From Clostridia bacterium (GTDB lineage: Bacteria; Bacillota; Clostridia; Oscillospirales; CAG-272): a DNA stretch of 64,000 nucleotides. Below are positions 49,738 to 51,215 of the stretch, piece by piece (the first letter of the stretch is position 1; each line of letters opens with the position of its first letter). The DNA lies in assembly GCA_017462035.1 (NCBI GenBank), contig JAFTRY010000007.1, positions 81,048-145,047 of the forward strand. The letters are read 5' to 3'. The translations under genes were made by a program, and so were the position numbers. The notes beneath the pieces were generated by a model. That model was not told where the DNA came from. It worked only from the letters and a program-made list of their open reading frames with translations, and made no database searches.

Positions 49738-50448
49738 ATGTTTTTTATTAAAATTGCTGACATAACCGTGCAGATTCACAACGTATATCCTTTTGTGGAA
49801 CGATTTTGCAAGGATTATCGGGTCGATCCTGTGGAAAATCCGGACCTGATCATCGGAGCGACAACGGATGAGATCGTTCGGGAGGTTGAGTTAGAGGGGG
49901 CAACCATGCCTCCGGAGCAGGCAGAGGGTATTTGTTTGTATCGAAAAATCTGTGTTCAGCTACCTATCAAATTTCAGGGTTTTCTGATGCATTGCGCTGT
50001 CATTGAATACGAAGGGGTCGGATATGCCTTTGCCGCAAAAAGTGGAACAGGGAAATCCACTCATATTGCGCTTTGGCAAAAACACTTTGGTAATGCTGTT
50101 CATATTGTCAATGGAGACAAACCTATTATGCGTTTTAGAAAAAATCAATTATACGCCTATGGTACTCCTTGGTGTGGAAAGGAAGGCTTTCAGACCAATA
50201 CCTCCGTCCCAATGAAGGCAATTTGTTTTATCGAGCGTTCAGAAACGAATCAAATTCGTCCAATCGGACCTGATGAGGCAGTAACAAGAATTTTTCACCA
50301 AATTCTCACTCCTTCCGATCTGGAAACTGTGAACTCTCTATTTCCATTGTTGGATCAAACATTGCGTGAGATTCCGTGTTATGTTCTGGGATGTAACATA
50401 TCTGAGGAGGCGGCTCAAGTCGCCTATCACGGAATGAATAAAATTTAA
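49738..50448 (+). CDS. HPr kinase-like P-loop protein (HprK C-terminal domain-like)
   Basis: HCAVIEYEGVGYAFAAKSGTGKSTHIALW parallels the HprK pattern LHGVLV..GVGVLITGDSGVGKSE. A TTGCAA-17-TAGAAT promoter lies upstream. Confidence 0.7.
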   Translation: MFFIKIADITVQIHNVYPFVERFCKDYRVDPVENPDLIIGATTDEIVREVELEGATMPPEQAEGICLYRKICVQLPIKFQGFLMHCAVIEYEGVGYAFAAKSGTGKSTHIALWQKHFGNAVHIVNGDKPIMRFRKNQLYAYGTPWCGKEGFQTNTSVPMKAICFIERSETNQIRPIGPDEAVTRIFHQILTPSDLETVNSLFPLLDQTLREIPCYVLGCNISEEAAQVAYHGMNKI

Positions 50449-50470
50449 AAAGAAAGTACGAGGAAAAACA

Positions 50471-50734
50471 ATGAAAATTAAATCCGGTTTTGTCGCGCGT
50501 GAAATTGCGGGTGAATATGTGGTAGTTGCGCTGGGAGCCGCCAGTAAGATTTTTAACGGAATCATTAAGCTCAATGATACAGCAAAATTGATTTGGGACA
50601 AGCTGTCTCTTGGCTGGGAAAAGGACGCGATTGTAGACGCTGTCCTTCAAGAATATGAAACCGACAGGGCTACAGTCGAGGCTGATTTTGACCGCTTTGT
50701 GGACACCTTAAAAGGAGCCAATATTCTTGAATAA
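50471..50734 (+). CDS. PqqD-family protein (RiPP recognition element-type peptide chaperone)
   Basis: An 87 aa protein. GEYVVV...KLNDTAKLIWDKL..G...AIVDAVLQEYETDRATVEADFDRFVDTLKGANILE matches the typical PqqD fold pattern. Confidence 0.8.
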   Translation: MKIKSGFVAREIAGEYVVVALGAASKIFNGIIKLNDTAKLIWDKLSLGWEKDAIVDAVLQEYETDRATVEADFDRFVDTLKGANILE

Positions 50735-51215
50735 CAACGAATTTTATTTGGCAGATGCCATAGATATCATTGAAGAGGTACTGGCAGGCGGAGGAGAATT
50801 TCGTATGTATCCCAAAGGAACCAGTATGCTTCCGCTTCTGGTTCAAGGGGAAGATTCGGTAATTTTACGGCGGCGGAAGGGTATACCCGCAAAAAAACAC
50901 GACATCATTTTTTATAGACGCGACAACGGACAATTCATTTTACATCGGGTTCTAAAGGTGTGTCCGGACGATTCCTATATTCTTTGCGGTGATAATCAAA
51001 CCTTGCTGGAGCCAAACATTCGTTCCGAACAAATCATTGGATATGTATCAGGCATTTATAAAAAAGACCGATTGTTGTCCACTACCTCCTTTTCATTTCG
51101 CGTTTACATGATCTTTTGGATGTGGATGCCGTATCGTCGCATGTTCCTTTTTATCAAGCGGTGTTTTCGGTTTCTCAAACGAAGGATCGGTCAACGAGGA
51201 AAGCATAGACAATAG
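50727..51215 (+). CDS. S24/S26-family serine peptidase with a hydrophobic C-terminal tail
   Basis: GTSMLPLL (Ser nucleophile motif) and ILHRVLKV (candidate general-base Lys). TTG start 9 nt after AAAGGAG. It overlaps the pqqD-like gene by 8 nt. Confidence 0.7.
   Translation: MNNNEFYLADAIDIIEEVLAGGGEFRMYPKGTSMLPLLVQGEDSVILRRRKGIPAKKHDIIFYRRDNGQFILHRVLKVCPDDSYILCGDNQTLLEPNIRSEQIIGYVSGIYKKDRLLSTTSFSFRVYMIFWMWMPYRRMFLFIKRCFRFLKRRIGQRGKHRQ

Follow-up and report, generated by a model that had tools for sequence, protein, structure and literature searches.

What can a peptide-maturation operon be acting on when neither a precursor peptide nor a core maturase is seen beside it? This question is raised by three consecutive genes in a 64,000-nucleotide stretch of DNA from a Clostridia bacterium (Oscillospirales, CAG-272; assembly GCA_017462035.1, contig JAFTRY010000007.1, positions 81,048 to 145,047), which is referred to as the window throughout. 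The genes encode a P-loop protein with the predicted fold of HPr kinase (K), a protein of the PqqD family (B) and a signal-peptidase-like serine protease (S). An earlier note, written from the sequence without database searches, had proposed a minimal or novel system for peptide phosphorylation and cleavage, in which an S24/S26 enzyme substitutes as leader peptidase. The reading that we favor, and to which we assign a probability of about two in three, is that K, B and S constitute a maturation module of the linear polyphosphorylated peptide (LPP) type, which stands alone and acts in trans on a precursor encoded elsewhere.

The LPP family was reported by Popov et al. in May 2026 from ~126 loci in Bacilli (Nat Commun 2026; PMC13381572). 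Its core genes encode a precursor (LppA), an HprK-like kinase (LppK), a recognition element (LppB), a signal-peptidase-like protein (LppS), an MsbA-like exporter (LppD) and an NTP_transf_5 enzyme (LppN), and the Paenibacillus alginolyticus cluster, cloned in the order lppA-K-B-S-D-N, was dissected experimentally. LppK places up to four phosphates on Ser3 of the core. Deletion of lppS abolishes leader removal, LppS cuts after T-1 only in the presence of LppB, and the S29A, H68A and D93A mutants of LppS are dead. The K, B and S proteins are enough for modification and processing. In the published LppS-LppB-LppA model, the sheet formed by LppB and the leader is contacted by the N-terminal helix of LppS. 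The precursors, which reach 200 aa, carry the leader motif YxxPxVLxHQxIxFETxxS, and the Tyr and Pro of its YxxP portion are fixed by N33, Y60, D70 and F74 of LppB (PMC13381572). The proposal of peptide phosphorylation and leader cleavage thus has a precedent in lppK, lppB and lppS; since this related family has been published, the system can no longer count as a novel kind.

All three protein types recur in the window, and their K-B-S order is that of the lpp genes. Its K and S match the TIGRFAM models that were pooled in the LPP survey, where the “HprK kinase” category stands for TIGR04249 and TIGR04352 matches and the signal-peptidase category for TIGR02228 (PMC13381572). Moreover, relatives of the window operon possess D and N genes as well as precursors whose leader can be aligned with the LPP leader. 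The best-supported placement of the module, judged by sequence comparison, is within a Clostridial sister clade of the LPP machinery.

We infer the chemistry of the window trio from that of the Paenibacillus homologues. B would bind a ribosomal precursor peptide at the YxxP motif of its leader; K would phosphorylate the conserved Ser just past the leader, possibly several times; and membrane-associated S, guided by the B-bound leader, would cut after the conserved Thr and free a linear phosphopeptide. The module would have to act in trans, the genes for precursor, exporter and NTP_transf_5 enzyme being unlinked here, in contrast to LPP clusters. No small open reading frame (ORF) in or beside the operon is a plausible precursor, in agreement with what had been noticed at the outset, and profile searches of the whole 64 kb detected neither a member of the leader-peptide family described below nor, with a profile built from related loci, an NTP_transf_5 homologue. 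The closest ABC-exporter homologue is 23 kb off on the opposite strand. Because these genes are not linked to the module, its substrate is presumably encoded elsewhere in the genome, or is something else. In P. chitinolyticus, a signal-peptidase-like gene stands without an adjacent recognition element, and the element and the precursor are found elsewhere in the genome (PMC13381572, Supplementary Data 1).

S is predicted, from sequence and model, to be an archaeal/SipW-type signal-peptidase-I-like serine peptidase that serves as an LppS-like leader peptidase. It finds LppS by BLASTP at 1.7e-10, and a profile of the Clostridial family finds LppS at 1.5e-21. Ser33, His73 and Asp89 of S align with the catalytic S29, H68 and D93 of LppS; the two proteins are of the same size, and both have a helix at the N-terminus and a hydrophobic tail at the C-terminus. 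These three residues and the motifs G-x-S-M-x-P, H-R and G-D-N are invariant among 61 homologues. The scores against curated models are sub-threshold: 0.013 for PF00717 (15.6 bits vs a cutoff of 23.3), 2e-5 for the archaeal signal peptidase I model TIGR02228, and 0.003 for the SipW model (17.2 bits vs a cutoff of 190). The structural model (predicted local distance difference test, pLDDT, 84) matches human SEC11C/A best, followed by LexA, SpsB, SipA and lambda repressor.

The class of S follows from its catalytic residues. A LexA/UmuD-type S24 assignment does not fit, as an invariant His of the HR motif occupies the position of the general base and an invariant GDN follows. The set of Ser33, His73 and Asp89 replaces the Ser-Lys dyad, which makes S an S26B-like enzyme (SipW/Sec11/archaeal type) and not a LexA-like one. 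The S24/S26 fold, the GTSMLP and HRVLK motifs and the tail described in the earlier note are all present, and only the S24 label has to be given up in favor of an S26B-like Ser-His-Asp enzyme. S shares the GxSMxP, HR and GDN boxes and the Ser-His-Asp residues with SipW, Sec11 and archaeal signal peptidase I (MEROPS S26B), and its best fold match, SEC11C/A, is of this group. It differs from the housekeeping enzymes in that its gene shares an operon, with translational coupling, with that of a recognition element, in scoring below the family cutoffs, including the SipW equivalog cutoff, and in the lack of an N-terminal membrane anchor. The N-terminus, MNNNEFYLADAIDIIEEVLAGGGEF, is not hydrophobic, and the sole hydrophobic segment is the hydrophobic and basic C-terminal tail. 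Without an N-terminal anchor, the catalytic domain is probably cytoplasmic. A Ruminococcus protein, SCH01704.1, is 40% identical to S (7e-32); it appears in the LPP study within cluster 9 of the sequence similarity network, a cluster of two members that was left unanalysed, where its entry gives co-localisation with a recognition element classed as “other” and is for the rest “not determined” (PMC13381572). We also note an S homologue in a locus without a PqqD gene (L062, 8639-9472; L and P numbers are our designations for loci and proteins), which bears an N-terminal extension of ~110 aa made of TTEAGAPPAELA-like repeats.

B is a discrete PqqD-type recognition element for peptides that are made on ribosomes and modified after translation (RiPPs), similar in sequence to LppB and lasso B1 proteins. 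The PqqD assignment, made at first from the sequence, passes the profile test (PF05402, E = 1e-15, above the Pfam cutoff); the lasso PqqD models of NCBIfam match below cutoff at 1.5e-8 and 2.9e-5. The best solved relative in a PDB sequence search is the lasso recognition element TbiB1 (5v1u, 1.6e-5), and LppB is reached at 0.025 (PDB 9x8z) and at 3e-6 by BLASTP. In the alignment with 9x8z, N35, Y62, D72 and F76 of B coincide with N33, Y60, D70 and F74 of LppB. B thus retains the residues for contact with a YxxP leader, and leader binding is predicted.

K is a P-loop protein of the ScmC family (precomputed family PF27840) and is predicted from sequence and fold to be an LppK-like peptide Ser kinase. 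The NCBIfam model TIGR04249 (ScmC) matches at 3e-10, sub-threshold with 39.8 bits vs a cutoff of 125, and the HprK-related kinase A/B models TIGR04352 and TIGR04355 match weakly and below cutoff. No model of the local Pfam copy matches, Hpr_kinase included. The AlphaFold2 model (pLDDT 96) nevertheless has ATP-dependent phosphoenolpyruvate (PEP) carboxykinases and HprK/P as its best Foldseek matches in the PDB, with probability 1.0 and identities of 11-14%. The initial description as HprK-like accordingly stands for the fold and not for the Pfam HprK profile: K fails as a true HprK/P by the Hpr_kinase_C profile, and the likeness is at the fold level only. A profile of K reaches the HprK chains of the PDB weakly (E = 0.15-0.36), and when the sequences of K and S were compared with the chains of the PDB, the matches were at chance level or to generic P-loops only. 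Among 28 homologues of 35-68% identity, H85, G103, G105, K106, T108, D127, K128 and P129 are invariant; the P-loop SGTGK(S/T)T and the segment N-G-D127-K-P are invariant or nearly so.

The K family is large, with 3,695 clusters at 90% identity; at 50% identity there are 7,991 representatives with E <= 1e-3, a count that takes in more distant ScmC/HprK-like relatives, and 773 of them have E <= 1e-30. Natural fusions join the K domain to NTP_transf_5 (twice), to the tyrosine-phosphatase-family domain Y_phosphatase3 and to DUF3737 (proteins P0126, P0236, P0185 and P0241). The fusion of K to NTP_transf_5 supports a functional K-N pair.

Which peptides might such modules modify? The survey of gene neighborhoods for conserved small ORFs, which had been proposed at the outset, uncovered a precursor family beside the trio in some relatives. 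Its leader reads MKK-x-Y-x-x-P-x-x-x-V-I-x-F-D/E-N-E-D-I-V-T-x-S and is followed by a hypervariable tail, which is either acidic and Trp-rich or Cys-rich. Members adjoin the module in L023, L024, L031, L046, L056, L071 and L076, and a divergent member is seen in L043; the peptide gene is located directly upstream of K in L024, directly after S in L031 and directly after B in L071. No Pfam or NCBIfam model covers the family, and a profile search retrieved 58 protein clusters, all of them unnamed. When the lookup was made from the peptide side, the linkage to the module was confirmed in L085/86, L089, L095/96 and L091/92. Peptide P0299 adjoins K, NTP_transf_5, S and B; P0322 and P0321 each belong to a cluster of NTP_transf_5, K-B-S, peptide and a radical S-adenosylmethionine (SAM) enzyme; for P0318 and P0316, the module is not adjacent. 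A peptide-side scan of metagenome contigs gave at least three loci, among which L091 and L092 adjoin S and K.

In frame, the Clostridial leader aligns with the LPP leader at K-x-Y-x-x-P, F-E/D and the conserved T. The two differ by one deletion of 3 residues and one insertion of 5, and by the place of the conserved Ser, which comes at +2 instead of +3. The junction accordingly reads ...F-D/E-N-E-D-I-V-T-x-S in place of ...F-E-T-x-x-S. The -3/-1 rule would put the cut behind the conserved Ser; in analogy with the mapped site of LppA, a cut after the conserved Thr is preferred. A further difference from LPP clusters is the radical SAM enzyme of some Clostridial relatives. In L089 (8001-9638) and L095 (5590-7264), and likewise in L096, K-B-S is followed by a Cys-containing precursor of the family and a radical SAM protein of 444-468 aa, with NTP_transf_5 alongside; the L089 and L095 variants suggest phosphorylation and radical-SAM chemistry on one peptide.

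Two other candidate sources of substrate were considered, and the first was discarded. Peptides of the pattern MKKYV.P...VISRNDLDIICTS.L.FPIIPL (L087, 8001-8150; L088, 8001-8150; L052, 1048-1230) have a leader of similar shape, and the module is not adjacent to them; this VISRNDLDIICTS subfamily always follows a protein of ~1,550 aa that has no Pfam domain. As to phage-borne precursors, a peptide-side scan of viral contigs found no family members, and the sole phage-like context in favor of the idea is that of L093, in which a family peptide, MKYEKPLTEIILFDNEDIITTSGEF (318-467), lies beside a dUTPase fragment and unannotated genes with no K, B or S nearby.

The occurrence of complete clusters in related species raises the question of whether a lasso or LPP-type cluster, complete at one time, has decayed to the window trio, which would now persist without function. 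The absence of precursor, exporter, NTP_transf_5 gene and cyclase near the operon would agree with this, as would the complete K-B-S-D-N clusters with precursor among the relatives. The distribution of the family argues otherwise. Scanning one genome per GTDB species with an alignment of nine K sequences yielded 80 loci, all from Clostridia or Erysipelotrichaceae metagenome-assembled genomes. Neighbors were annotated by profile for 82 loci with K, matches within 4 kb of K being counted. B was found in 64 and S in 63 of these, in most cases directly downstream; an upstream neighbor, U, was found in 23, an ABC-type protein (any match) in 13 and NTP_transf_5 in 7, and the other neighbors differ from locus to locus. 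Strong in-cluster exporter matches are confined to 7 of the 13 ABC loci: the exporter gene is directly 3' of S in L031, L038, L039, L051, L075 and L077, and in L023 it is situated between the NTP_transf_5 gene and K. NTP_transf_5 is present in L023, L024, L038, L056, L076, L085, L089 and L095, and L038 displays the full K-B-S-D-N order.

When the census of arrangements is limited to loci with full flanks (~39 species loci), K-B-S occurs alone in 14 and together with U, as in the window, in 10; an exporter, NTP-transferase and/or precursor is present in 7. The remaining types are K alone (4; 11 loci overall), K-S with U and no B (3) and K-B (1). As the 14 and 10 loci outnumber the 7 fuller clusters, the stand-alone trio is the norm and not a one-off product of decay. 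The earlier note had allowed for a remnant if homologous trios were always embedded in RiPP clusters; instead, 24 of the ~39 loci hold the trio only, with catalytic residues kept. Across trio-only loci, K identities are 42-68%, all ORFs are intact and the catalytic residues are invariant. In a neighbor-joining tree of K, trio-only clades are interleaved with complete-cluster clades, and the window K falls into a coherent K-B-S+U clade that shares flanking hydrogenase genes; in the closest relatives these genes and the trio are syntenic. Along with the intact promoter, ribosome-binding sites, translational coupling and terminator of the operon, this makes decay highly improbable.

The window's clade looks vertically inherited and not patchy, and in this respect, as in its extra conserved membrane-protein neighbor, it departs from the LPP systems, whose distribution is described as patchy and horizontally transferred and whose clusters lie in capsular polysaccharide loci (PMC13381572). 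In some relatives, capsule/exopolysaccharide genes (Wzz-like, CpsD-like tyrosine kinase, CpsB, LytR-CpsA-Psr) are located beside K or K-B-S (L080, 6308-7745; L089, 11703-16216), an echo of the placement of LPP clusters.

Besides K, B and S themselves, U is the only conserved neighbor of the trio. It has no family match in Pfam, NCBIfam or PADLOC; a search of U, K, B and S for anti-phage defence in PADLOC likewise gave no match. The conserved features of U are a final Phe residue and an A-Y-K/R-L-L motif. The U homologue is directly upstream of K in the 23 loci mentioned, and in a distant clade without a PqqD gene (L028, L032, L059 and L062) its stop overlaps the K start. U is a possible partner of K-B-S. 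Because it is the sole other conserved neighbor, is coupled to K in the B-less clade, and the window's clade looks vertical and stable, weight is due to the alternative that the trio phosphorylates and/or cleaves a protein, for example U or some other protein of the envelope, and serves as a device for regulated proteolysis or signalling. The lack of a detectable local precursor, the loci with K alone, the fusions of K to a tyrosine-phosphatase-family domain or DUF3737, and the length that LPP precursors can attain would suit a protein substrate as well. However, B keeps the residues that contact YxxP, whereas no YxxP-type N-terminal leader is seen in U; 59 of the 82 loci do without U; in the window, U forms a transcription unit apart from the trio, with its own terminator; and the candidate substrates that are linked to the module are always short peptides with the conserved leader. 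We regard a protein substrate as unlikely.

The same observations allow a different combination, in which K-B-S with U is a vertically inherited, chromosomally fixed “maturation hub” that serves scattered or mobile-element precursors, or that has been co-opted for signalling in the envelope or in development, where it would phosphorylate and cleave a protein of the cell. This appears possible but doubtful; if true, it would mean that RiPP-type machinery has a physiological role and not one in conflict or as an antibiotic.

The remaining alternative is that the trio is not autonomous but an accessory tailoring set for a lasso or radical-SAM RiPP cluster elsewhere in the genome. K belongs to PF27840/TIGR04249 and is paired with a PqqD protein, as in SynChlorMet (SCM: ScmC, the PqqD protein ScmD, ScmE/ScmF), and the ScmC family name derives from a cassette with two radical SAM/SPASM enzymes. 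Literature searches on ScmC/SynChlorMet turned up only unrelated acronyms. The window differs from such a cassette in the sub-cutoff score of K, in the absence of the two radical SAM/SPASM enzymes nearby and in the presence of a peptidase instead. HprK-like kinases and NTP_transf_5 enzymes also tailor lasso clusters of the paeninodin type, with which the window system shares a discrete PqqD/B1-type element, an HprK-fold kinase and, in the associated peptides, a YxxP-type leader logic; and the L089 and L095 relatives carry radical SAM enzymes beside K-B-S and a Cys-containing precursor. More than half of the LPP hosts encode lasso machinery in addition (PMC13381572).

On the other side, neither a lasso cyclase nor a B2 protease, and neither a radical SAM enzyme nor an exporter, was found within ~9 kb on either side of the operon (ORFs at 40.6-60.4 kb, which were profile-searched or read; the rest of the window was not profile-searched), and the statement to that effect in the earlier note holds for this range. 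Lasso cyclase, B2 protease and radical SAM enzyme are not recurrent neighbors in the 80 species loci either. The paeninodin-type systems thus differ in their Asn-synthetase-like macrolactam cyclase and transglutaminase-like B2, and leader removal would be assigned in the window system to a serine signal-peptidase-like enzyme. Furthermore, the module has a recognition element and a leader peptidase of its own, which mere tailoring would not need, and the LPP example demonstrates that K, B and S alone suffice (PMC13381572). An accessory role is therefore quite improbable.

Several observations weigh against an LPP-type module that works in trans. The 64 kb hold no family precursor, and neither do the flanks (±8 kb) in the window's clade; the acts-in-trans step thus has no direct support. 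The link between K and LppK consists of shared TIGRFAM models, predicted fold and gene order. All profile matches of K and S are under the curated cutoffs, S and B are only 23-28% identical to LppS and LppB, and the window protein belongs to network cluster 9 and not to the LPP cluster 1. The stable synteny of the window's clade with hydrogenase genes, as opposed to the patchiness of LPP, hints at a different and more housekeeping-like role. Finally, some relatives have K-S with U, K-S or K alone, so K, B and S are not an obligate unit. The roles proposed for the Clostridial members are drawn from sequence and structural models.

The kind of system is already known from the LPP work, the supplement of which includes two members of the Clostridial clade, unanalysed. 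What is new is how large this clade is, that its precursors and leaders make up a distinct family, that some variants are coupled to radical SAM enzymes, and that the bare trio with or without U predominates. In the Clostridia of gut and rumen, the sister clade of LPP is very common; its leader motif is its own, and its most frequent form is the bare set of kinase, recognition element and peptidase to which no precursor is linked. From the census come candidate substrates and several natural architectures (the trio alone, with exporter and NTP-transferase, or with a radical SAM enzyme), which makes it testable whether RiPP maturation modules act in trans on dispersed substrates and what role phosphopeptides have in anaerobic gut bacteria.

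By sequence, K, B and S form a discrete operon with its own promoter, three genes and a terminator (Table 1), and each feature of the self-contained three-gene operon sketched in the earlier note was found again. The predicted promoter, TTGCAA-17-TAGAAT, was recovered by a consensus scan and fits 9 of 12 hexamer positions in addition to an extended -10. The B and S genes overlap by 8 nt (50727-50734), as had been noted. The hairpin 3' of S was recovered by RNA folding at -22.6 kcal/mol (z = -3.87; equalled by 0 of 200 shuffles), and its stem is followed by UUUUUAUUCUUUU.

Table 1. Positions of the operon, its signals and the surrounding features in the window.
Feature	Position	Strand	Remarks
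K gene	49738-50448	+	ORF of 236 aa; carries FAAKSGTGKSTH
B gene	50471-50734	+	ORF of 87 aa
S gene	50727-51215	+	ORF of 162 aa; TTG start; AAAGGAG ribosome-binding site ahead; GTSMLP, HRVLK, CGDNQ
Promoter, sigma-70-type	49680-49708	+	TTGCAA, 17-nt spacer, TAGAAT, TG extension; consensus match
Upstream terminator	49638-49667		13-bp stem; ends the U gene and lies before the operon promoter
Downstream hairpin, intrinsic-terminator-like	51222-51290	+	RNA fold; U-run after the stem
U, upstream neighbor	48962-49621	+	219 aa; two N-terminal hydrophobic helices
[FeFe]-hydrogenase-type gene set	40653-48131	+	directly upstream
Two polysaccharide deacetylase genes	51359-52845		downstream of the operon
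Rep_trans, rolling-circle replication initiator	57969-58937	-	7.8e-11
Unannotated ORFs near Rep_trans	57189-57887 and 59501-60364	-	no Pfam match

The hydrogenase-type set contains Fe_hyd_lg_C proteins, a NuoF-like subunit of 605 aa and 2Fe-2S thioredoxin-like proteins, and further holds a PHP-domain protein and a histidine-kinase-like ATPase. An integrated mobile element may account for the region around Rep_trans, which lies ~7 kb downstream of the operon.

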